Assembly (NCBI GenBank): GCA_964399675.1
Contig: CAYNRK010000001.1
Coordinates: forward strand, 137,221 to 201,220
Source: an uncultured Gammaproteobacteria bacterium
GTDB taxonomy: Bacteria > Patescibacteriota > Patescibacteriia > UBA9934 > GWF2-40-263
Length of the DNA: 64,000 nucleotides
Reading direction: 5' to 3'
Part shown: piece by piece, positions 7-49,401 of the stretch
Numbering within the stretch: the first letter of the stretch is position 1
Layout: each line of letters begins with the position of its first letter
The notes under the pieces: generated by a model
Told to the model about the DNA's origin: nothing
Database searches by the model: none
Seen by the model: only the letters and a program-made list of their open reading frames with translations
Program-made: the position numbers and the translations under genes

Positions 7-909
7 GTGCGTACATTCGTTCATTTCTTTGCAGTATCCATTCTTCTCCTCGGCCTGGTTGGTTGTACCGAGGTGATCAAACCTGTTCGTTCCGCCGGGG
101 CCATGGGTTCGGATGGTGGCGCTGCCGAGGGAGAGGGCGAGGGAGAAGGTGAGGGCGAGGGGGATGTTGTCGCTGTGGGCGTGTGTGATGTTGTGGGCGT
201 GGGCGTCGGTGTGGGGGAGGGCGAGGGAGAGGGGATTGCCGAGGGCGAAGGCGAAGGCGCTGCCGAAGGTGAAGGCGAAGGCGAAGGCGAAGGCTCTGCC
301 GAGGGCGAAGGCTCTGCCGAAGGTGAGGGCGAGGGCGAAGGCGAAGGCGCTGCCGAGGGAGAAGGAGAAGGAGAGGGCTCTGCCGAAGGTGAGGGCGAAG
401 GCGAAGGTGAAGGCGCTGCCGAGGGAGAAGGTGAAGGAGACCTCCCTGATCCGCTGCCCGACAGCTTCGTTCTTGTAGGCATCTTCGGTGGCTACCCGGC
501 GATCCAGCTCAATGTCGAGCCTTACAGCTCGGCGAACGTGCTCGGTCGGGGCTGGCTCGAGTCTGCACAGGTGCTCAACGGTGATGAGGTCGTGGTCGAC
601 CTTTTGGCCGACGTGTACCCGCCAGACACCCTGTGTGGCATTCGCCTCAACGCATCCTTCTATCACGACGCAGGGGACGTGAACCAGGACAACGAGATTA
701 TTGGCGAGCCCGAGAGCTGGCTCTGTGAGGTCATCTCACCGGGCGAGGAGAACCAGCGCTTGGTGCTCGAAGCAGCCGCCTGGAGCGAGGTCAGGGTCAA
801 CAATCTCGAATACTCCCTTGATGACATGGTGCCATACCAGGTTCCCGGCGAGGCCGGTTGCTCGGCCTTGCTCATCATCAGCGAGAATGGGCTCTGCGCC
901 CTGAACTGA
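7..909 (+). CDS. Secreted lipoprotein with an N-terminal (Gly-Glu)n low-complexity repeat region. GTG start; the product is unknown.
   Basis: Signal peptide [20 protein letters not shown] with lipobox L-V-G-C. Residues 40-140 are [14 protein letters not shown] repeats encoded by GAAGGC hexamer tandem repeats. About 60% GC. Confidence 0.5.
120..440 (+). repeat. Tandem hexanucleotide (GAGGGC/GAAGGC)n array inside the lipoprotein gene. It is likely hypervariable.
   Basis: Directly visible runs of ggcgaaggcgaaggc with periodic gctgccgag punctuations. Confidence 0.7.
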
Positions 910-11977: not shown

Positions 11978-12054
11978 TGGTGGACCCGACCGGATTCGAA
12001 CCGGTAATTCTCGGTGCTAACGCGAACGGGGTTACCAATTACCCCCACGGGCCC
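11978..12054 (-). tRNA. tRNA-like sequence. The acceptor stem with a G3:U70 pair (Ala-like), the D-arm, the T-arm GGTTCGAATCC and a CCA end are canonical. The anticodon arm is aberrant, so this is possibly a pseudo-tRNA or an integration-site remnant.
   Basis: Minus-strand read GGGCCCGTGGGGGTAATTGGTAACCCCGTTCGCGTTAGCACCGAGAATTACCGGTTCGAATCCGGTCGGGTCCACCA. The anticodon stem TTCGC/CCGAG has a C-C mismatch, and the loop GTTAGCA has a non-purine at position 37. Confidence 0.4.
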
Positions 12055-27844: not shown

Positions 27845-27889
27845 CCCGCCCGCCGAAGCTCTGAAAGAGCGAAGGCGGGTTTTTTTTTG
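27845..27889 (+). terminator. Rho-independent terminator after ndk (cccgcc...ggcgggttttttttt).
   Basis: GC stem with a nested gctc/gagc stem, followed by nine T. Confidence 0.65.
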
Positions 27890-27961
27890 GTTTGGATATT
27901 TAAGATTGACTTTTTTGAGATTTTTGATTATCGTGACATTCGCCTGGCATTGAGGAGGGGT

Positions 27962-29095
27962 ATGTATAGCTGGCAGGAACTTCAGCGACTGCATTCAGAC
28001 TGGGTGAAGATTCATAAAGGAGCAATCGACAAACGAAGAGCACTGCTTGATAGCGCGTCGTTTATGGATCGTTGGTTGTTCATCAACGCGATCCAGACCG
28101 TGCGAACAGGTCGCATGCGACTTGTTACCAACTGCGCGTACGGCTTTGCCGATCAGCTCTATCTGGATGCTAGTGTTGCTGCAACACCTCATCTTGATAG
28201 GTTGCTTGATCTGGCACTAAAGCCTGGGCCAGATGGTCAACCCGATCCTCAAAGGTGGTTTGAGGGCATTAGCCTTTTCGATCAAGCAATCGCAATTACT
28301 AAGATCGAAAAAGAAGAACCGCTTGAGAGAATTGGTCGCGTTCTTGACATGTTTGTTGATCTGCTTGAGCGAGAGATCTTCACTGGAGAGTTCAACAAGA
28401 TCGACTTCTACGCATACCATGATCCAGAACAAGAGTTTGTGGTAGCGCGTGAGAATGTTGGGATTGGCAAACACCTTACTCGTCCAGGACTTCAGAGACG
28501 CAAGTCCAGACTCGCTTGTAGGCAGGTGCAAAAAGGAAGCATTGCCTACATGCATCACAGGATCAAGGATCCCTTTCTGACATGGCTCAAAATGCAGCGT
28601 CAATGCAAGTTGGCCAGGAAAGAGGATGTCTTCAGCATTAATGATCGTTGCGGCTTGACCAAGGTTGTTCCAACCCAGCAAGATGTTCTGGCCTTGTGGG
28701 GAAGCATACGTCGGCTTGTTGTGGTTAGTGGTGGAACCATCACACAAGAACTTCGCGCTAACTACAACATTGGTGAACCACTTGATGAGGAAAACGGTTC
28801 TTCATCAAGCAAGTATCGATTTGCTCAGGCGTGTTTTGTTTGGCAGGGAGTGGAAATCGAACTTCAGTTCATGACTTTCCACGACTACTTCACAAGCCTT
28901 CGATCACTCTCAGAAGCAAACCACGAACTCTACAAAATCCGTCAGGCTTACAACCACACCTTTCCTCTTATTTGGCCGGTTCAAATCTACGAAGTGAATT
29001 GGTCAAATCCTTACGTTCGTCATCAGATGTCAGCTTGGAAACAGGCGCAACTTGGTTGGCGGGTCAACGGGGACTCTTCGGAACGCTCAAGCTAA
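27962..29095 (+). CDS. Hypothetical protein (about 50% GC).
   Basis: GGAGG ribosome-binding site immediately before ATG at 27962. No family motif recognised. Confidence 0.45.
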   Translation: MYSWQELQRLHSDWVKIHKGAIDKRRALLDSASFMDRWLFINAIQTVRTGRMRLVTNCAYGFADQLYLDASVAATPHLDRLLDLALKPGPDGQPDPQRWFEGISLFDQAIAITKIEKEEPLERIGRVLDMFVDLLEREIFTGEFNKIDFYAYHDPEQEFVVARENVGIGKHLTRPGLQRRKSRLACRQVQKGSIAYMHHRIKDPFLTWLKMQRQCKLARKEDVFSINDRCGLTKVVPTQQDVLALWGSIRRLVVVSGGTITQELRANYNIGEPLDEENGSSSSKYRFAQACFVWQGVEIELQFMTFHDYFTSLRSLSEANHELYKIRQAYNHTFPLIWPVQIYEVNWSNPYVRHQMSAWKQAQLGWRVNGDSSERSS

Positions 29096-29122: not shown

Positions 29123-30199
29123 TTAATAAGACACAAAATTTTTAAGGAATTCGAAAATTTCTAGCATGTCAGCCAAGTTTGCTTCTTCTGTATATTGATG
29201 GGCATTATAGTAGCCAGAACCAATTGGCACGCAAGTGATGCCATTGGCATTAAAAACGTTTGCATCAGATCCGCCAAACGTTTCAAAGTAGTTTGGTTTC
29301 AGATTTATTTTCTTAAAAGTTTCTTCCAGGAGTTCAAAGAGTTCGTGATCTTGTGTTAGCTGGTAACCCTCGAATTCGAGTTGTTGATCGATCTTGCATT
29401 CTGCATTGTGCTTTGCAATTACATCTTTGATTGTTTTTTCAATGCGCTTGCCTTCGCTTACAACTTTGTCAGTGTCAAAACTTCTAAGCTCTGCTTTGAA
29501 CTTTGCAGATCCCGGCACGCTGTTGCGCGCTGTTCCTGATTCAAACATTCCAACATTCCATGTCACACCTTCGGCGCTGTGTCCCCATGGCAAGGACATC
29601 AAAGCATCACTCATTGCATGCAACGCATTGATGCCGAGTTCTGGTTCTCGAGGGTGAACAATCTTTCCAATACACTCAGCATCAATTTTAACAAAGGCTG
29701 GTGCTCGCGTAACAACTTGTGTGACAGGACCATCTTCATCAAGTACAAGTCCGATTTTTGCAGTGAGAAGATTATAGTCAGCCTTTAATGCTCCAAACAG
29801 CCCAGTCTCTTCTCCACGAGTTAGCAAAACCTCAATCGGCCTGTGTGTGGAATGATCTTGGTCTGCCATGTAGATTAAAAATTCAATTAAAACAGCAAGT
29901 CCTGTTTTTGGATCAGCACCTAGAATACCGGTTCCATTTGAGCGAATTACATCACCATCAATTGTGTAATCTGGATTTGGAAGCGATTCAGGAATATCAA
30001 GATGCGTGGAAAGTAAGATTGCTTTGCCATTGCCTGGGATTTTGGCAATGATATTTCTAAAGCCATCTTGCTCATGATTAACATTCGCCTCAGTGAGGCG
30101 ATTTTGCGTATAAGTAATTATTTCTTTTTCGTTTGGGTAGATCTCGTTAATGTGAACTAGATCCAGAAAAGTTTTTTTGAGTTGGTTTTTTGTAATCAT
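29123..30199 (-). CDS. Peptidase M20 family (PepT-like tripeptidase).
   Basis: STHLD, GADPKTG and RGEETGLFGA match the M20 metal-ligand and catalytic motifs. Confidence 0.7.
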   Translation of the reverse strand: MITKNQLKKTFLDLVHINEIYPNEKEIITYTQNRLTEANVNHEQDGFRNIIAKIPGNGKAILLSTHLDIPESLPNPDYTIDGDVIRSNGTGILGADPKTGLAVLIEFLIYMADQDHSTHRPIEVLLTRGEETGLFGALKADYNLLTAKIGLVLDEDGPVTQVVTRAPAFVKIDAECIGKIVHPREPELGINALHAMSDALMSLPWGHSAEGVTWNVGMFESGTARNSVPGSAKFKAELRSFDTDKVVSEGKRIEKTIKDVIAKHNAECKIDQQLEFEGYQLTQDHELFELLEETFKKINLKPNYFETFGGSDANVFNANGITCVPIGSGYYNAHQYTEEANLADMLEIFEFLKNFVSY

Positions 30200-30263
30200 A
30201 TTGTCATGTGCATACTTTTATGATTGCACAAAAGTCTGCACACGAGAAGAAGAAAGAAAGGGT

Positions 30264-30296
30264 GTGAGGCGGCAGACAGCCCGTCTGCCGCCTCAC
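30264..30296 (-). terminator. Perfect 14-bp inverted repeat gtgaggcggcagac-agccc-gtctgccgcctcac. It is the terminator of the high-GC minus-strand operon and the left island boundary.
   Basis: 14-bp perfect stem overlapping the stop codon, followed on the minus strand by a U-rich tract. Confidence 0.6.
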
Positions 30297-31123
30297 GTCG
30301 TTGTTGAGTTGCCAAGCCACCAGGTTGACCGGGCAATCATGCCCAGCTCGCCTGTGTCTAGCTTGTAGTAGGGATTGAGATCGGTTGCCTTGCCGCACGA
30401 ATGTACGGGCATGCCAACCCTTGCGAAGTGGTCGACGACCTGATCGTCACCCAAGATGAGCTTTTGGTACGCACCGCGCCAGACCTTGCGGTCGGTAGCG
30501 CGGTCGGTGACCTTGACATTGATTGTCATGATGCCTGTTGTTGGGTCAAAGCGTGGGGTGCGTGCGTCGTTGACAGGGGTGCCGTCGAGTTCAGCTTGCC
30601 AGACAACAGTTTTCCCAACACGACATCGATCAAGGTAGCCTTGTCCGATGAAGTCCATGAGAAACGCTCCGTCTTTTGCCAGCGGATCGATCATGCCGCG
30701 CGTGATGCGCAGCAGGAGATCCGGATCAACAACATCACCGAAGGAGTTGCCAAGCAAGATACTCGCATCGAAGCGTTCATTAGTGCGCCATGTGGTGAGA
30801 TCTCCAATGTGGAGTTGGACACGTGGATCTTGGCCGTGGCTTTTGAGAGCCTTGGCCACGCACTTTGGCGAAAGATCTACACCAACGATTCGTTGAACAC
30901 CGGACCACAGCAGAGCGTTGATGTGTCTGCCCGTGCCAAAACAGGGCAGGAAGACGCTCCTGGGTACGTGGCCAATAAGTCGGATGGCAGTTCCGACTTC
31001 AGCCCAGGCAAGCGCGCTGTTGTCATGGACATCTCTATCGAGCTGTTCCATCACGTCATAGTGACGCGCAACATCGAACTGGGCCGGAGGTTCTGTTCTG
31101 TGTTGATGAGCGGTAGCTTGCAT
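30293..31123 (-). CDS. Class I SAM-dependent methyltransferase (high GC, about 60%).
   Basis: LPCFGTGRH...VGVDLS SAM-binding motif I and post-I acidic residue. Its start overlaps the stop of the upstream gene (TGATG). Confidence 0.65.
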   Translation of the reverse strand: MQATAHQHRTEPPAQFDVARHYDVMEQLDRDVHDNSALAWAEVGTAIRLIGHVPRSVFLPCFGTGRHINALLWSGVQRIVGVDLSPKCVAKALKSHGQDPRVQLHIGDLTTWRTNERFDASILLGNSFGDVVDPDLLLRITRGMIDPLAKDGAFLMDFIGQGYLDRCRVGKTVVWQAELDGTPVNDARTPRFDPTTGIMTINVKVTDRATDRKVWRGAYQKLILGDDQVVDHFARVGMPVHSCGKATDLNPYYKLDTGELGMIARSTWWLGNSTTT

Positions 31124-33051
31124 CACTCCCCTTGGTAGATGACCGGACCCTCTTCAGCGTCGTCAGCGCCGTGGATTCGGAAGCTACCGGTTCGCAGGGT
31201 CATGGTGGATCCAACAAGATCGACATGACCATCCGTTTCCGCGTCCCCTGAGAAGAGGAAGAACGGAGTCAGACGCGTGCGCGCACCACGATCGAGCCGG
31301 ACGTTGCCATCACTGTCGCGGTAGGCCACGGTGTAGCGATGCGAAGCAATGATGTGCTGGGCCACAACCGGGTGGGGGAGTCTGGCTCGCACAGCAAGCT
31401 CTTTTTCCCATTTCATCTGATTCTGAGCCTGGCTGCCAAGCGAAAGGCTGCGTGCACCCCAGGACTTGTTGTCGCCGTCCCAGGCACCGAACTTGGTCAG
31501 CCAGAGATGTCGCTCGTCTCTCACTTGTGGGAGAACACGATCGAGCAGACGCGTCTCTGCCACACAGTTATGCAATGTGGTGAGCGCTGCGGGATCGCGG
31601 CTTTTGATCCAGTGCATCACGTTCGGGTGCCAGAGCGCGGCCATGAGAGCCTTGTTTTCCAGACAGTGCCAGAGCGGGTTCATCATGAAGGTATCTTGGC
31701 TGTCCCAGGCGACCAGTTGATCCAGTCCTCCTGTGTTGACGAAGTTGTCGAAGTAGCCGAAGCGGAAGACAACTGTGTTCGGACCGAGCGTTTGAGGGAA
31801 ACCCTCGTCGCTGCCGTGAACGAATTCGTCGAACCCGAGCGCTTTGAGACGCCCCAGGAAGTCGCTGTTCCATGTGGCCTTGGCTGCATCAGACATGTTG
31901 TCGTGTGGCCACCAGCCTTTCCGTGTCAGCTTTGAGGGGCCGCCGCGCTGGCGAACCGCATCGTGGATCTGTTGAAGGGGCGTGTCGAACCAGATCTCGG
32001 CATCAAGGCCGCGCTCGCGAAGAGCAGCAACGAAGACGGCCTGATCCCACACGTACTCAGCCCATTCGTTGGTGGCGAACACGATGAGTTTGCGACCATC
32101 CAGTAGACGGACGTAACCGTCCAGCATGGTTGTGTCCAGTCCGTAGCCGAGCTCCATGGCGTGCGACATACCCTGTCCGGCAGGGCAAGATTCGAACTCA
32201 GTGATGACCGGGCGGAGTACGCCAGTCACCGGGTCCTTGACCACTACGATGTCCGGTCGCATGAGCATGACCGGGCCGCCTTGCATGAGTGCGGGAATAC
32301 GATCCGGGCGGCCATGATTGAGGATGTGCTGGACGCCGGGATTGCTTTTGTGCAGCGCATGGATCGCCTTGAATGCGAGTGCAAGCGCTTGCCCAAGCTC
32401 TCCCAACTTGTCCAGGAAGTACGTGGGCAGGGTGAAGGGATCGATGAGCTGGCGCCAGGAGACGCCACTGAGCCCTTTGTACCCAATACCAGTCTTGTTC
32501 ATGCGAACGCGCGCGGCCTCGACCTTGTCGCCGGCCGGTTGATTGACTCGGCGGACATGGGGTCCAGCGGCTTCTGCTTCTTGCCAGCCGTCAACGAGCT
32601 CAGGCTCGATGAGCAGGGCATCAGCCAGGTTGAGGCCATGGCCTCCAACTGTGGGCATGTTCTGGATGTCTACCCAGCGGCGCTCGATCGGATGCTCCAG
32701 GGGGCGACCTCGCCTGCCTTTTGTGTCGGTTCGACTTCCTGTTGTCCAGTCAAAACCGAGCATTGCGAACTTCACCTTCAGCGCGTCCAGGATAGGTCCG
32801 TTCTTGGGCCAGGTATCTGACTGTGCTGGAATGGCTACTCCGTTGTCTGGTAGTGTGCTGCCGCTGAGCACCTTGTTGCGCCATTCCCTTGTGGAGCGCT
32901 TGACACCGGATCCTCTCTCAGGACCACTGAGACCATGCTTGCGTCGCATCTCAAGCACCCTTTCGGGCACCACGACCGTGCTCTGGCCTCGTCGGCGTCT
33001 GGTGTTCCAAGTTGCGCCAGTTGTCTGGGAGGTCCTCGTGACTGAGTGCAT
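31123..33051 (-). CDS. Large protein carrying a glutathionylspermidine-synthase-like (GSP_synth/YgiC-YjfC family) ATP-grasp amide-ligase domain in residues about 250-600. The first ~200 residues are Arg-rich and of unknown function.
   Basis: RPDIVVVKDPVTGVLRPVITEFES (compare YgiC [22 protein letters not shown]), ENKALMAALWHPNVMHW (compare [20 protein letters not shown]), and WLTKFGAWDGDNKSWGA (compare VVKPIFSREGANV). GGAGAAAG ribosome-binding site before ATG at 33051. About 62% GC. Confidence 0.55.
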   Translation of the reverse strand: MHSVTRTSQTTGATWNTRRRRGQSTVVVPERVLEMRRKHGLSGPERGSGVKRSTREWRNKVLSGSTLPDNGVAIPAQSDTWPKNGPILDALKVKFAMLGFDWTTGSRTDTKGRRGRPLEHPIERRWVDIQNMPTVGGHGLNLADALLIEPELVDGWQEAEAAGPHVRRVNQPAGDKVEAARVRMNKTGIGYKGLSGVSWRQLIDPFTLPTYFLDKLGELGQALALAFKAIHALHKSNPGVQHILNHGRPDRIPALMQGGPVMLMRPDIVVVKDPVTGVLRPVITEFESCPAGQGMSHAMELGYGLDTTMLDGYVRLLDGRKLIVFATNEWAEYVWDQAVFVAALRERGLDAEIWFDTPLQQIHDAVRQRGGPSKLTRKGWWPHDNMSDAAKATWNSDFLGRLKALGFDEFVHGSDEGFPQTLGPNTVVFRFGYFDNFVNTGGLDQLVAWDSQDTFMMNPLWHCLENKALMAALWHPNVMHWIKSRDPAALTTLHNCVAETRLLDRVLPQVRDERHLWLTKFGAWDGDNKSWGARSLSLGSQAQNQMKWEKELAVRARLPHPVVAQHIIASHRYTVAYRDSDGNVRLDRGARTRLTPFFLFSGDAETDGHVDLVGSTMTLRTGSFRIHGADDAEEGPVIYQGE

Positions 33052-33151
33052 TCAACTTTCTCCGTCTGAATCTGTGTTCTGGTTTTCCGCTCGCAAAACC
33101 GTTTTTAAGTGACAGTATTGTGAGCAGGAAACAGAACAAGATCCAGAAAAG

Positions 33152-33183
33152 AAAATCGCTACGGGTTTTTCCGTAGCGATTTA
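33152..33183. terminator. Hairpin aaatcgctacgg-gttttt-ccgtagcgattt at the right boundary of the high-GC island.
   Basis: 12-bp perfect stem. A-rich upstream and U-rich on the minus strand. Confidence 0.5.
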
Positions 33184-33770
33184 TCTGACTGTTTGTTTAA
33201 ACAGTTTAAAGCTTATGCATACGGAAAGAAATTGGAGTCATAACAAAAAGAACGCGGATAGATCGCATCCAATATGTCAAACAAAGATTTTCTTTCTTTC
33301 CGATTGAAATCATACTCAAATAAGGCTATACGATCTTAAATTAGTTGTCAAATAGTTTATTTGTTCAAGAGAACAAGCTTGTGAATGATCCTGTGGAAAA
33401 AAAGTGGACAGATACTCCTTTTCAAACTTGCGAAATTCTGTCAGGATGATAAGTTTAATATGCCTTTCGGATAGATGGGTTCGTCTCAAAATTACAAATA
33501 ACACTTTGGTCTGGGAATGCTCGGTTTCGACAGGGCAACAGGACCTAACGGTTTTTCTGAGAATCGCTGACGACATGGTGGGTACGACAAGCTGCCATCA
33601 TCGCAACGCTCTTGGATCGGAACAGTCTTGAGCTGATCTGGAAAGATTTGTACCAAAACCGGATGATATTCCAAAAATCAATTGGGACACCCATTTATCC
33701 GTCAGGCACCAAAAAATTATGAAAAATGATAAGATGAGTTGAGTCAATCAACTTTTTTTTAATACCGACT

Positions 33771-36713: not shown

Positions 36714-36929
36714 ATGGCAAAAAAGAGACCAAAGGTCAGTTACGATTCAGATGCAAAGATTCTTTCTATAAGAGTTTCGTCTAAAAAAAGTGTGGATTCA
36801 GATATTCATGGTAATGTTGTTGTTGATTATGGAAAAGACGGACAACTTGTGAACGTTGACATTATGGACATATCGCTCTCGGAGTTTAAACGAGAACCAG
36901 TTATTAGAAAAATAATCGCCACAGTATAA
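36714..36929 (+). CDS. DUF2283-family small protein.
   Basis: YDSDAKILSIRVS...GNVVVDYGKDGQLVNVDIMD pattern typical of DUF2283. Confidence 0.5.
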   Translation: MAKKRPKVSYDSDAKILSIRVSSKKSVDSDIHGNVVVDYGKDGQLVNVDIMDISLSEFKREPVIRKIIATV

Positions 36930-36950
36930 AAGTTTTTTAATAAAAAAATC

Positions 36951-36977
36951 AAAAAACCGGCCTTAGGTCGGTTTTTT
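36951..36977 (+). terminator. Terminator aaaaaaccggccttaggtcggtttttt.
   Basis: GC stem with A/T flanks. Confidence 0.5.
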
Positions 36978-37075
36978 AAATTGGATTTTTTTGATATAAT
37001 AATTTCTGTCCAAACACCGGCTTGGTTGCGCATAGCCAAGAAGGGCATTGAACAACGAGCGACAAGGAGGACACC

Positions 37076-37645
37076 ATGCGAGCACTCTTGCCTGACAGAG
37101 GGCGAGTCATCGGGTTCTGCGTCCTGATCAGCGCGATGCTGTTGCTGGCCGCAGTACCGGCAACCGCGGAGGTGAAGGCGACCGACCAGTCCCACGACGC
37201 GGACTCGGGGGTCATCTGCTTCCTGAACAACGACGCCAGCCAGGAGCTGACCTGCATCAACCGACGCGCAGAGTCGGACATGTGGGCGATCACCTGCGCG
37301 CTGCGGGACGGCGGCAAGTGCCTGAGCCGAGACAGCGAGCTCATCCTCGTGGACGGCAACCGCTTCATCATGCGAGACGGTCAGCTCATCCTCTGTGACG
37401 GCAACCGCTTCATCATGCGGGATGGGCAACCGCCGTTCATCATGAGGACACCAGCAACAGCTATGCTCCTGCTCAAGGAGATCGGGATGAACCACCCGGC
37501 GGTGGCGCTCCTGATCATGATGCGCGACGAGTTCATCATGCGCACGCCAACAACGCTCGCGCTCAAGAAGTGGCGCGGCGCAACCCAAGCGGTGTCCAAG
37601 GCCGAACTCACGGACGGGACCGCTCCGTTCTCGTTCTGCGTGTAG
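37076..37645 (+). CDS. Secreted/exported protein with tandem FIMRDGQ repeats, on a very high-GC (about 62%) island.
   Basis: Signal peptide MRALLPDRGRVIGFCVLISAMLLLAAVPATA. Repeat LIL(V/C)DGNRFIMRDGQ x2 plus FIMRTP x2. Confidence 0.45.
   Translation: MRALLPDRGRVIGFCVLISAMLLLAAVPATAEVKATDQSHDADSGVICFLNNDASQELTCINRRAESDMWAITCALRDGGKCLSRDSELILVDGNRFIMRDGQLILCDGNRFIMRDGQPPFIMRTPATAMLLLKEIGMNHPAVALLIMMRDEFIMRTPTTLALKKWRGATQAVSKAELTDGTAPFSFCV
37333..37422 (+). repeat. 45-bp perfect-ish tandem duplication (ctcatcctc[gt]tg[gt]gacggcaaccgcttcatcatgcg[ag]ga[ct]gg[tg]ca[ga]) x2.
   Basis: Directly visible at 37333-37377 and 37378-37422. Confidence 0.75.
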
Positions 37646-37783
37646 CGCGACCCCGGCGCAACGCACGAGACAACGGCTCCACACTCAAGGGTGTAGAAAA
37701 GCTGACTTCGGTCGGCTGCTCCTGCATCCTTTTTCATTTTCTTGTGTTTCCAAAGAGCTTTCTGTACATTGAATAGCACAACT

Positions 37784-45719: not shown

Positions 45720-47057
45720 TTAGGCCGGGAGTTCGTAGCGGACTACGTGGAAGGTATTGTCGACTACGAACCAGCTCATCACAGCATGACCATCGACCTC
45801 AGTGAGGCGATCGAAGTCTGAGTAGAGCGGGAAGGTGCCGACCCCAGAGATCGAGTAAGGAGGCATCCTGGACCAGGAGAAGATGTCCGAAGAACCGCCT
45901 GCCCACATGGTCAATCCATCGTGGAGCCGGCGATATATGGGAATGTGTCTGGTGGTAACCGCTGGAGTGACGAGCGACTCAACGCCGTCTTCTGAGAACC
46001 ACACGACAGGTCTGGCCTGGTTTCCATCGGCTTCGTGTCCGATGATCGCGACGCCATTGGGGAGCACAACAATGTCTTCAACGGACAAGATGCGTTTGTG
46101 AGGGAGTCGGCGATTGCTGGCTGAATGCTCGCGCAGGGTGAGCGTCTTCCCATCATCTGAATGTACCCAGAACGTCCTGCCATCTTTCGCGAAGATCTTG
46201 TCATTGCGACAGAATCCATTCCCACCCATCCCATTGGGGGTATGGGAGTTCAGGTAGTTGCCATCAGTTGTGCTGACATGCAACACACCGTCATCATCAA
46301 GGAACAGGCTGTTTGGGATGATCCGATCTTCGTTCCTGAGCTTGATCACCTGACGGCCAAACAGAACCTCTTTGTAGTCTGAACAGCGATGTACAATCGC
46401 AGGAGTGTTATCGCTTCTTGCGACCTTGAGAACGGTTCGTTCGTCCTTTGCCCAGAGAACATCTTCTTCAAAGACCAAGCGGCGGTGTTCCTCACTTTGG
46501 CAGAAGACCCGCACAAACTGTTGGCGATCGTCGGATCTGTCATTTCCTGGGTCAAAGGAAACTGCACACCACTTCGAGCACCCTGCTGTCCAGAAGGTTG
46601 GCGCTTCGATCGGGGTCAGATCCAGATCGAATTCCCAGTCGCCCCAACGAACACCGAAGTGCTCAGCTTCTGCATCTGTGTAAACGAACGCCAGTTTGTT
46701 GCTTCCCTCAGGGAAGTGCGGGTACAGAAGATTGTCTGTATTGTCGATCGGTTCAGAAAGACCCGAAGTAGCTGTCCAGGTTCGAACACCCCGCTTTTGA
46801 TCCCCCACGGCACTGCAGACAAGCGCGATCGTTCCGTCGTGTGCAATGCACACGCTGTCATGGATCACGTTGACTCCTGGCGGGAGTCGAAATGCGTGCG
46901 TTACGTGCGGAGGCAGGCCGATGGGCTTTCCAGCAAGAACTTTGACCGCCTGTTCAAGTCTACCTGGACTGACCTTGCCTGGATGAGCACCAAGGTATAC
47001 AAGGATTTGCGCAAGCGCTTTTTCTCTTCGTGTTGGTCCTACTACTGGACTTGCCAT
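45720..47057 (-). CDS. Hypothetical protein (445 aa), high GC (about 58%).
   Basis: Long ORF. No motif recognised. Confidence 0.5.
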   Translation of the reverse strand: MASPVVGPTRREKALAQILVYLGAHPGKVSPGRLEQAVKVLAGKPIGLPPHVTHAFRLPPGVNVIHDSVCIAHDGTIALVCSAVGDQKRGVRTWTATSGLSEPIDNTDNLLYPHFPEGSNKLAFVYTDAEAEHFGVRWGDWEFDLDLTPIEAPTFWTAGCSKWCAVSFDPGNDRSDDRQQFVRVFCQSEEHRRLVFEEDVLWAKDERTVLKVARSDNTPAIVHRCSDYKEVLFGRQVIKLRNEDRIIPNSLFLDDDGVLHVSTTDGNYLNSHTPNGMGGNGFCRNDKIFAKDGRTFWVHSDDGKTLTLREHSASNRRLPHKRILSVEDIVVLPNGVAIIGHEADGNQARPVVWFSEDGVESLVTPAVTTRHIPIYRRLHDGLTMWAGGSSDIFSWSRMPPYSISGVGTFPLYSDFDRLTEVDGHAVMSWFVVDNTFHVVRYELPA

Positions 47058-47278: not shown

Positions 47279-48217
47279 CTACGGCGTGGCCGCGGCCGGC
47301 TCGGGCTCGCTCGCGGTCGGGTCGCCGTTGGTCGGCTTGGCCTCGGCTTCGGGTTCCTCCGCGGTCTCGTCCGCTTCGGACTCCTTGATCTCGGGCGCCA
47401 GGTGCGCGTGCAGGTCCTCGATGCCGTAGGTGGGCGCGGCTGCGCTGAGCTCGGTGAACACGCTGCGCACGACCGTGTCGAAGATCTCGTCCTGCCGCCG
47501 CTCCCACAGCTCGTTGAGCCACTCCTGGAACTCGTGGAGCAGTGCATCGTAGTACGAGCCGGTTGGGTCGAAGCACGCGATCGGGATGTTGTGATCCTCG
47601 CGAGCCACCTGCTGGGCACGCTCGTGCTCGTGCTGGTATACCCCCATGTCTTTGTCGCTGGCGTTGGTCACCACCGTGAGCTGGTTTCGGTGGAGGCCGG
47701 TCAGCGCCTCTATCGCTCCCATCGGGCCGTTGTTGCCGACCGCGATCAGTTGCACGCCGTGTGCATCAAGGGCGCGGTCGTTGTTGAGACGATCGAAGAA
47801 GATCGCACGGATCAGCGGAACGAGCCGCTTGACCAGCGGTTCCTCCTTGCGCCAGCCGTACTCGAGCTCGCTGCTCAGTTCCTCGCGCAGATCCACGAGC
47901 GTGCTGCGCAGGGTCTCGGTCAGGAGCTCCCTGGTCGCGGCCGCGTGCTTCTTCCTGGGCGAGCGTACGAACACCATGCCGGCGTCCACGCTGTGATGCA
48001 GCTCGTAGAGGCCGCTACAGAGCGGACCGTCGTGATCCACGACTGCGGTTTCAGCCAACACCTGGATCCTGCCCGTGGTGGCTGAGTTGAACATGGGTGT
48101 GGTGTTGCACACCACGACCACGCCGGTGTCGGCATCAATCTCCACGCAGATCCGTACTGCCGCGGTGATCGGGTCTGCTGCCACGTCCCTCAGTGACTGT
48201 GTGCTAACGTCTGACAT
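47279..48217 (-). CDS. Hypothetical protein, paralog 1 (312 aa). Acidic Pro/Glu-rich C-terminal tail. High GC (about 63%).
   Basis: About 35% identity to 48475-49401 over the N-terminal 230 aa. The last ~75 aa are nearly identical (FDTVVRSVFTELSAAAPTYGIEDLHAHLAPEIKESEADETAEEPEAEAKPTNGDP). Confidence 0.5.
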   Translation of the reverse strand: MSDVSTQSLRDVAADPITAAVRICVEIDADTGVVVVCNTTPMFNSATTGRIQVLAETAVVDHDGPLCSGLYELHHSVDAGMVFVRSPRKKHAAATRELLTETLRSTLVDLREELSSELEYGWRKEEPLVKRLVPLIRAIFFDRLNNDRALDAHGVQLIAVGNNGPMGAIEALTGLHRNQLTVVTNASDKDMGVYQHEHERAQQVAREDHNIPIACFDPTGSYYDALLHEFQEWLNELWERRQDEIFDTVVRSVFTELSAAAPTYGIEDLHAHLAPEIKESEADETAEEPEAEAKPTNGDPTASEPEPAAATP

Positions 48218-48474: not shown

Positions 48475-49401
48475 CTAGCCCGGCGAAGCGGCGGTCTCGG
48501 CCTCGGGCTCGCTCGCGGCTGGGTCGCCGTTGGTCGGCTTGGCCTCGGCTTCGGGTTCCTCCGCGGTCTCGTCCGCTTCGGACTCCTTGATCTCGGGCGC
48601 CAGGTGCGCGTGCAGGTCCTCGATGCCGTAGGTGGGCGCGGCTGCGCTGAGCTCAGTGAACACGCTGCGCACGACCGTGTCGAACAGGGTCGGAGCGTGC
48701 TCGACCCAGAGCTCGTTCAGGTAGTTCTGGAACTCGCGGAGCAGCGCGTCGAAGTACGTACCGGTCGGGTCGAAGCAGTGCACTGCGATGTTGTTGTTCT
48801 CGACCACCTCGCTCGCACGTCGCTTCTGTGCCTCGCGTGCCTGGCTGCTTCCGCATTCGCAGCCGGGAGGGCAGCCGCCCTCGAGCATCGCCATGATGCC
48901 TTCGGGGCGACCCTGACCCACGGCCACGAGCTCGATCGCGTTCCTGTTGAACGGCCGCCCTTCCTTGATGCGGTCGAAGATCACGCGTCGCAGCTGGCCG
49001 GGCAGCCACTCGAGCAGCCGTTCTTCGCTGACCCACCAGTCGGTGAGCTCTTGGGCGAGCTCGGCGTGCAGACCGGGCAGCAGGCTGATGACCAGTCCGG
49101 TCAGCATCTCTCTGGTGCTGGCCGCGTGCGTCTTCCTGGGTCCCTGGATGAACACGATGCCACCCTCGATGCTGTACCGCATCGTGTAGTCGCCGCTGCA
49201 GAGCGGAGCCTCGTGCTGTCCGGCCTCTCGTGTGAGCTTGTCCGTGATCTTGTCCGCGGTCGACCACGCCATTGCTGGCTCGGTGGCCACAACCACGACC
49301 TCGCGTCCTTCGGCCCTGACCCTGAAGGTCAGCTGCACGCAAGCGTGGATCGGTTCGTCAGCGACCTCTCTGGGGCTGGGGAAGCTGATGTCTATCGACA
49401 T
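48475..49401 (-). CDS. Hypothetical protein, paralog 2 (308 aa).
   Basis: See paralog 1. It contains a Cys cluster GGCPPGCECGSS that is absent from paralog 1. Confidence 0.5.
   Translation of the reverse strand: MSIDISFPSPREVADEPIHACVQLTFRVRAEGREVVVVATEPAMAWSTADKITDKLTREAGQHEAPLCSGDYTMRYSIEGGIVFIQGPRKTHAASTREMLTGLVISLLPGLHAELAQELTDWWVSEERLLEWLPGQLRRVIFDRIKEGRPFNRNAIELVAVGQGRPEGIMAMLEGGCPPGCECGSSQAREAQKRRASEVVENNNIAVHCFDPTGTYFDALLREFQNYLNELWVEHAPTLFDTVVRSVFTELSAAAPTYGIEDLHAHLAPEIKESEADETAEEPEAEAKPTNGDPAASEPEAETAASPG

Follow-up and report, generated by a model that had tools for sequence, protein, structure and literature searches.

A conserved Patescibacteria gene cluster of a divergent ATP-grasp ligase, a methyltransferase and an M20 peptidase with a putative attenuator-type leader

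Members of the candidate phyla radiation (CPR), or Patescibacteria, have tiny genomes with little recognised biosynthesis and, to our knowledge, almost no characterised regulation. We analysed a 64,000-nt stretch of DNA (hereafter the window; assembly GCA_964399675.1, contig CAYNRK010000001.1, positions 137,221 to 201,220) that carries on its minus strand a gene for a predicted ATP-grasp amide ligase, coupled to a methyltransferase gene and followed by a gene for an M20 peptidase. An earlier note, made from the sequence alone, had described the first two genes as a horizontally acquired operon flanked by hairpins. The features of the locus, in the direction of transcription and in window coordinates, are the following:

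33346-33351, minus strand: promoter-like -35 box TTGACA, with a -10-like TATAGC ~15 nt downstream, both inferred from sequence
33206-33313, minus strand: predicted leader open reading frame (ORF) of 35 amino acids (aa), MISIGKKENLCLTYWMRSIRVLFVMTPISFRMHKL; the start ATG is ~12 nt 3′ of the -10-like box and the stop 24 nt before the leader terminator
33292-33307, minus strand: region 1, 5′ strand of stem P1, codons 3-8 of the leader ORF
33216-33228, minus strand: region 2, 3′ strand of P1 and candidate antiterminator, complementary in addition to the leader terminator (5′ arm and loop)
33153-33182, minus strand: predicted intrinsic terminator of the leader, 12-bp perfect stem, 6-nt loop, tail TCTTTTCT
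31123-33051, minus strand: ligase ORF, 642 aa, as given in the ORF listing
32482-32970, minus strand: ligase N-terminal domain, residues ~28-190, found in the CPR clade only, with motifs RRKHGF, PKN, NxPT(V/I)GG and DGY
31126-32481, minus strand: ligase catalytic region, residues ~191-642, circularly permuted ATP-grasp fold
30293-31126, minus strand: class I S-adenosylmethionine-dependent methyltransferase, 277 aa from GTG or 276 from ATG, overlapping the ligase stop
30264-30296, minus strand: predicted terminator hairpin of 14-15 bp after the methyltransferase, overlapping its TGA; arms 30264-30277/30283-30296 of 14 nt, 100% complementary, with a T-rich tail
29123-30199, minus strand: PepT-like M20 metallopeptidase, 358 aa, GC 0.40 (host-like), the next gene downstream

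The two coupled minus-strand genes of the earlier note are thus present as overlapping ORFs. Their junction reads GGGGAGTGATGCAAG, with the overlap GTGATG: the ligase TGA shares its A with the ATG of the methyltransferase, or 4 nt with the listed GTG start. Both hairpins announced in that note, of 14 nt at the 3′ end and 12 nt upstream, are also real, the arms of the upstream one (33153-33164/33171-33182, 12 nt) being 100% complementary as well.

Sequence models recognised no family for the ligase. There was no Pfam family at E ≤ 1 and no NCBIfam or PADLOC match, and neither phmmer nor profile comparison with the PDB gave a match. The hidden Markov model (HMM) search proposed as a check of a GspS/YgiC-like enzyme was therefore negative: neither an ATP-grasp nor a GSP_synth match was obtained for the window protein. 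A word-indexed search returned only 25 homologues, none with a Pfam domain and the named ones all from metagenome-assembled genomes of Patescibacteria, and 185,579 species-representative genomes contained the ligase in only eight loci (Uhr-, Magasanik-, Kerfeld-, Woyke- and Jacksonbacteria). A contig of 3.6 kb that carries it is labelled Gammaproteobacteria and may be mis-binned. Identity between ligases of the CPR loci is 37-57%, with a mean of 44% between loci. An exhaustive profile search extended the family to 497 cluster representatives, many of which are 420-480 aa long and are devoid of the first ~160 residues; no Pfam match was found in ten of these short representatives, nor any Pfam model in 100 family members scanned. 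Among 91 distant relatives, three matched PF03738 below threshold (best E 9.7e-6) and one matched CP_ATPgrasp_2, which at the sequence level is a transitive link to the GspS-type ligases. Searching the family with GspS and YgiC themselves (phmmer) gave only E > 0.1. A remote homologue, annotated as hypothetical and 26.6% identical over 193 aa, lies on a Streptomyces plasmid (NZ_CP109170.1, 612074-624218; locus L028).

In the predicted structure, the catalytic region adopts the circularly permuted ATP-grasp fold, which clearly supports the ATP-grasp claim of the earlier note and speaks against an unrelated fold. Best matches were the fungal ligase Cp1B and glutathione synthetases, not GspS, and all strong matches were small-molecule ligases; scores are lower thereafter, 11.3 with a GshA-type ligase and 8.6 with classical ATP-grasp enzymes. 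D267, E285 and K467 never vary among 127 family members, in which R265, G294, Y303, R430, K520, R593 and T618 are near-invariant. Seven residues contacting triphosphate and Mg (R, D, E, N, K, K, R; R328/D330/E344/N346/K513/K548/R613 in LmTSA) have been listed for TryS/GspS (PMC2427367), and we confirmed them in the E. coli GspS sequence (GRMDF, YEYN, GNKAIL, AVKPIA, CLRGDE). The ligase residues are collinear with six of the seven in a profile alignment of low formal probability (4.7%), which pairs R265/D267/E285/E287/K467/K520 with GspS R316/D318/E330/N332/K498/K533; the last Arg is ambiguous (R593 or R620). In this alignment ‘ENKALMAALW’ of the ligase stands opposite ‘GNKAILPILW’ of GspS, the motif NKA(L/I)(L/M) being common to both, and when single GspS or YgiC sequences were compared with the family profile by hhalign, the alignments were likewise collinear, at 2.5-4.7% probability. 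Of the motifs named earlier, R265-P-D267, ENKALMAALWHPN (K467) and K520-F-G-A-W-D-G were found and are conserved, whereas the supposed ‘E-x-N’ Mg motif is E285-F-E287, E287 replacing GspS N332. The ligase thus belongs, as a divergent member, to the circularly permuted (glutathione-synthetase/GspS/YgiC/Cp1B-type) ATP-grasp superfamily, of which it forms a new, unannotated branch, and its predicted Mg/ATP-binding residues are intact.

The first ~27 residues, rich in Arg, are not conserved and are predicted to be disordered, and a JGI call of the identical protein is 26 residues shorter (616 aa, 96% of the query covered). The N-terminal domain that follows is clade-specific and of novel fold. It gave neither a match resembling the recognition element of ribosomally made peptides with post-translational modifications (RiPPs) nor, at the ligase N-terminus, a CHAP amidase domain.

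These data bear on the possibility that the protein is a genuine GspS/YgiC-type enzyme conjugating a polyamine to glutathione or to a peptide. The attribution was right for fold and chemistry because of the structural match and the transitive PF03738 link; membership in the family itself did not follow. Compared with GspS, trypanothione synthetase and YgiC/YjfC (PF03738), the window protein has no HMM match and carries E287 for N332. It has no CHAP amidase, its N-terminal domain is unrelated, and conservation of the residues binding substrate (glutathione, spermidine) is not demonstrated. With Cp1B and glutathione synthetases ahead of GspS in structural comparison, we regard this possibility as unlikely. 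Cp1B (PDB 9cjn), from E-64 biosynthesis, is a small-molecule acid-amino acid ligase that was itself once a ‘hypothetical protein’ without sequence-detectable relatives (PMC12568646). It shares 14% identity with the ligase and differs in lacking the N-terminal extra domain and in its partners, an amide-bond synthetase and an Fe/2OG oxygenase rather than a methyltransferase and an M20 peptidase. The eukaryotic-type synthetases of glutathione and homoglutathione share 9-11% identity and differ by the absence of an HMM match and by another operon context.

The methyltransferase matched Methyltransf_25 (PF13649) with 32.9 bits for a cutoff of 27 (E 1.1e-7), in agreement with the claim of a class I methyltransferase tightly coupled to the ligase, and carries the motif LPCFGTGRH followed by VGVDLS. 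Its closest solved relatives are small-molecule N-methyltransferases: ToxA (7e-6), the sugar N,N-dimethyltransferases TylM1/DesVI and glycine sarcosine N-methyltransferase. The downstream gene encodes a protein with the Pfam domains M20_dimer and Peptidase_M20, which matched the PepT-like model TIGR01883 over its full length at E 6.6e-66 (222.7 bits, below the cutoff of 274.25) and the PDB entries 3gb0 and 3rza at ~1e-40. A second stem-loop lies directly 5′ of the M20 start and after the methyltransferase terminator (30200-30263; also in L001, L002, L005, L013, L014 and L015) and could be a separate control element of the M20 gene. Further on, between NDK and M20, a 402-aa ORF (27887-29095, plus strand, GC 0.47) has no Pfam or NCBIfam match; its place is taken in the syntenic locus L022 by an unannotated gene of 376 aa on the strand opposite to M20, and it is absent from L001.

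Ligase, methyltransferase and M20 genes follow each other in the same order in all 13 loci that contain both ligase and methyltransferase (L001/9, L002-4/16, L005, L010-L015 and, by tblastn, L021, L022 and L025). The last three were reached from M20 orthologues on long contigs, upstream of which tblastn located the pair; methyltransferase fragments adjoin M20 on two short contigs, and a metagenome scan with the M20 protein yielded two short contigs only. The description as a self-contained two-gene operon is not supported: in each locus the next gene on that strand is a PepT-like M20 gene, and ahead of the pair stands a conserved small ORF with a terminator. A strong hairpin is found directly 3′ of the methyltransferase stop in eight of the nine loci examined, with a sequence partly common to the window, L001 and L002 (GTGAGG[C/T]GG), so that predicted termination between the pair and M20 is itself a conserved feature. 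In L006, a short ligase without the N-terminal domain adjoins M20 and there is no methyltransferase. A more distant arrangement was seen in a Woesebacteria locus (L024, 1606-5088): a 1160-aa protein with a 122-aa ligase-like segment (30% identity) is followed by a methyltransferase-like gene (27% identity) and an M20 orthologue, all at normal host GC.

Neighbouring genes at the CPR loci encode an Asp/Glu racemase, an amine oxidase, a dipeptide-epimerase-like protein and further peptidases. In L025 (7086-12211), the cluster is followed by genes for a cupin, an M24 peptidase, a second M20 paralogue, an MR_MLE (dipeptide-epimerase-like) protein and a member of the AstE_AspA family, a neighbourhood reminiscent of peptide or murein-peptide recycling. 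The Streptomyces homologue stands among radical SAM, TauD/TfdA, arginine-deiminase-family, extra valS, alpha/beta hydrolase and class I methyltransferase genes, and the nearest short homologue is flanked by DAO- and Fe-ADH-family genes and, across from these, by an MttB-family gene. The neighbourhoods of these distant relatives point to small-molecule chemistry.

We also considered a protein-modifying enzyme of RimK or tubulin-tyrosine-ligase type, whose basic N-terminal domain would dock on a protein or RNA while the methyltransferase modifies the same macromolecule. Since the strong structural matches are all small-molecule ligases, the methyltransferase is nearest to small-molecule N-methyltransferases and no candidate target gene is linked to the cluster, such an enzyme appears very improbable.

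The upstream part of the locus has a distinctive architecture. The TTGACA box lies ~170 nt upstream of the leader hairpin; ATTTGACAA does not vary between the window, L001 and L022 when these are aligned, and a TTGAC box occupies the equivalent place in 11 of 13 loci checked. A generic promoter scan did not pick up the TTGACA/TATAGC candidate. The leader ORF appears near-leaderless, its ATG lying 10-14 nt after the -10 box across loci. An ATG-initiated ORF of 30-42 aa whose stop is 20-33 nt before a terminator was found in all 13 ligase-methyltransferase loci, L012, L013 and L025 included (in L002 the gap, measured by eye, is ~31-33 nt; elsewhere it is 20-31 nt). The same arrangement occurs at 1.4% of random positions in these sequences, and the binomial tail for 10 of 12 loci is ~2e-17, or 8.5e-13 if only eight lineages are counted as independent. 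The peptides themselves share little else than Trp (12/13), His (13/13), an internal Met and recurrent basic residues. The terminator is located 101 nt 5′ of the ligase ATG in the window and mostly ~90-180 nt in the other loci; its stem is identical in the window, L001 and L022, and hairpins of different sequence stand at the same position in L005, L010, L011, L012, L013, L014, L015, L021 and L025, and by eye in L002. In the window, L001 and L022, where the neighbouring gene on the upstream side runs in the opposite direction, this hairpin terminates no annotated gene. A short ORF that is predicted to be translated and ends just before an intrinsic terminator is what is expected of an attenuator.

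Folding of the leader is consistent with this. Compared with shuffled sequences the window leader folds with z = -6.14, and the consensus fold of three relatives combines the long stem P1 with a small hairpin P2 and the terminator; 11 pairs are compensatory among the three sequences. The 1:2 duplex of the window has -13.3 kcal/mol against -8.0 for shuffles (p 0.018), and pairing of region 2 with codons ~2-8 is supported over nine loci (Fisher ~5e-4). Region 2 can alternatively pair with the terminator: UUUCCGUA is complementary to UACGGAAA (window duplex p 0.024). This 2:3 duplex beats 500 shuffles at the same place of the ORF in five of the nine loci (p 0.002-0.024) and is the best duplex at that place, not significantly, in two more (Fisher ~8e-6). 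The antiterminator segment is found 6-26 nt before the ORF stop and changes together with the terminator arm (CCGUA, CGCGGU, GCGGUGG, GGUGGCU, UGCAGCA). Pairings 1:2, 2:3 and 3:4 are mutually exclusive, as in attenuators, and the leader has, as judged from these predicted pairings, the four-region layout of a translation-coupled attenuator. No Rfam family was detected in the window leader (E ≤ 1) or in those of the nine loci. The proposal that the upstream hairpin insulates the pair is not supported: it is the predicted terminator of a structured, ORF-bearing leader with an alternative antiterminator.

The small ORF can also be read as a substrate. In a RiPP-like pathway, the ligase, with its N-terminal domain as recognition module, would amidate the C-terminal carboxylate of the peptide with an amine, as YgiC and YjfC do with spermidine; the methyltransferase would N-methylate the product, M20 would trim it, and the hairpin would set a high precursor:enzyme ratio. 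Several observations fit. The ORF accompanies the ligase-methyltransferase pair in 13 of 13 loci, and in L006, where methyltransferase and N-terminal domain are both missing, no small ORF was found; the peptides, cationic or hydrophobic, contain few acidic residues, which leaves the C-terminus as the sole carboxylate common to all; the relatives YgiC and YjfC are peptide-spermidine ligases; and the best NCBIfam match of the methyltransferase, a weak one (26 bits for a cutoff of 175), is a daptide RiPP methyltransferase. Yet neither the C-termini nor any core is conserved among the small ORFs, and a covarying antiterminator would be purposeless behind a precursor ORF with a leaky terminator. 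For these two reasons we rate this pathway lower and find it rather doubtful.

Base composition separates the pair from its surroundings. GC is 0.36 in the leader, 0.60 in the ligase, 0.56 in the methyltransferase, 0.38 in the spacer and 0.40 in M20, with steps exactly at the borders of the coding sequences (CDSs); flanking genes, leader and spacer lie at 0.36-0.41 and the genome at ~40%. GC at third codon positions (GC3) is 0.68 for the ligase and 0.60 for the methyltransferase against 0.26-0.34 for flanking genes. The pair is indeed GC-rich, as stated before, at 58% overall, the earlier figure of 61% being slightly high. The excess recurs elsewhere: in all 12 loci compared, ligase GC3 (0.50-0.87) exceeds M20 GC3 (0.32-0.53) and the pair (GC 0.49-0.64) exceeds the rest of the locus (0.41-0.54). 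A recently acquired foreign cassette without integrated role would account for the GC3 of 0.60-0.68 in a host at ~0.30, for proteins richer in Arg than in Lys, unlike those of the host, and for other GC-rich islands in the window. It is difficult to reconcile with the recurrence of position, order and leader in 12-13 loci of Uhr-, Magasanik-, Kerfeld-, Woyke- and Jacksonbacteria, whose ligases are 37-57% identical, with a GC step that coincides with the CDS ends and spares a leader of 36% GC, or with the lack of a close relative on plasmids or phages. We consider it highly improbable. A recent, private horizontal acquisition is not supported on the same grounds, since at least five named CPR groups, with 12 loci, show both the arrangement and the GC excess. 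The idea of a mobile element is similarly unsupported, with no phage match and the single remote Streptomyces plasmid match. The GC excess does not look like a recent foreign insertion and is rather a long-maintained property of the two CDSs; that their rare-codon usage is tuned to the condition in which the operon is expressed is speculation.

The same property affects gene calling. Being GC-rich, the ligase is often replaced by antisense ORFs in stored calls, and the family is under-counted in surveys of called proteins. Stored calls show antisense ORFs over the ligase of 773 aa in L021, 537 aa in L022 and 195 and 256 aa in L025, and a further one of 224 aa over the methyltransferase in L021, which tblastn places on the other strand (regions L021 2668-4989 and 5255-5929, L022 3304-4917, L025 3662-5059). 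Such replacement concerns all three M20-reached loci that hold the pair. The search listing contained 149 M20 orthologues (E ≤ 1e-60) for 25 ligases, a difference probably due in part to these antisense calls.

Five further GC-rich islands are present in the window (7-909, 36827-37684, 45720-47057, 47279-48217 and 48475-49401; GC 0.54-0.66, GC3 up to 0.86). Their ORFs have no Pfam match except a weak TrAA12-like one far under the cutoff (E 0.009), and several overlap long ORFs of the opposite strand, which leaves the true coding strand ambiguous. Like the pair, they may behave as ‘stable GC-rich genes’. Elsewhere in the window, ARAGORN predicts a 77-nt tRNA-Ala (11978-12054, minus strand) with the anticodon AGC, which begins at position 37. 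An Ala tRNA with A34 would be unusual, since UGC and GGC are the anticodons that normally serve Ala in bacteria.

Taken as a whole, the locus is a conserved CPR cluster rather than a two-gene island, comprising predicted promoter, 35-aa leader ORF, putatively switchable terminator, ligase, methyltransferase, second terminator and PepT-like M20 gene; on balance, it is probably under attenuator control and devoted to one peptide-like metabolite. Its function is most likely the attenuator-controlled synthesis and N-methylation of a small peptide-like metabolite. Transcription would start ~300 nt upstream of the ligase, and translation of the near-leaderless ORF would decide the partner of region 2: if paired with region 1 the terminator would form, if paired with the 5′ arm of the terminator there would be read-through. 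By a logic similar to that of the trp attenuator, a ribosome stalled early or in the middle of the ORF would switch the operon on. Coupled translation would then yield ligase and methyltransferase from the read-through transcript. The ligase would activate a carboxylate as acyl-phosphate and join it to an amine or amino acid; the methyltransferase would methylate, probably on nitrogen, the substrate or the product; and the tripeptidase-like M20 enzyme would hydrolyse, recycle or supply the same class of small peptide. In this scheme a single peptide-like metabolite would serve all three enzymes, and operon expression would be gated by leader translation.

Several points weigh against this scheme. 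Promoter and transcription start are predictions from sequence. None of the leader ORFs contains a run of a single regulatory codon, Trp and His being recurrent but single, and the antiterminator test is individually non-significant in four of nine loci. A Moranbacteria M20 orthologue (L023, 52% identical) occurs without the pair, and a strong terminator separates M20, whose base composition differs, from the pair. Ligase and M20 divergence are weakly correlated (Spearman 0.27); co-divergence of the two genes, considered as proof of strict vertical inheritance, was set aside as weak (rho 0.27). For the ligase, with the GspS profile alignment at 4.7% probability, the residue mapping relies on order, motif likeness and fold match.

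Known systems offer partial parallels. Carnosinase is an M20 dipeptidase. In animal anserine metabolism, the same three enzyme classes, carnosine synthase, carnosine N-methyltransferase and carnosinase, make, methylate and hydrolyse a small dipeptide (PMC3660329, PMC6271292). That system differs by a classical ATP-grasp domain, methyltransferases of other families and unclustered genes, and the parallel is one of logic, an analogy and not homology. With the trpL and hisL attenuators and the TnaC and SpeFL arrest peptides, the leader shares a short 5′ ORF, four mutually exclusive pairing regions and a terminator before the regulated genes. It differs in that it lacks a single-codon run, its ORF is seemingly near-leaderless and the terminator is ~100 nt from the first gene.

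We found no literature on a CPR system of this kind, in keeping with the earlier statement that it had not been described: sources name the homologues ‘hypothetical protein’ or give them no name. The ligase family, unannotated and of ~500 cluster representatives, has a predictable chemistry, ATP-dependent amide ligation, and its N-terminal domain is without structural precedent. The stable GC excess in two CDSs across lineages is unexplained and argues against equating a GC island with recent transfer. As a tentative proposal, which we hold to be possible and little more, either the leader encodes a new nascent peptide sensing a metabolite or amino acid and controlling a CPR-specific pathway for an N-methylated peptide-like metabolite, or the small ORF provides the precursor for a new class of RiPPs, amidated at its C-terminus by the GspS-like ligase and then N-methylated; in both cases the GC-rich, rare-codon CDSs would be part of the control, for example through translation tuned to starvation. 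The second case would offer a route to doubly cationic peptides, daptide-like but chemically unrelated to daptides. The first would be a rare case of regulated secondary-type metabolism in reduced CPR genomes, with leader ORF, antiterminator and terminator as a testable candidate cis-regulatory switch conserved across several CPR lineages.

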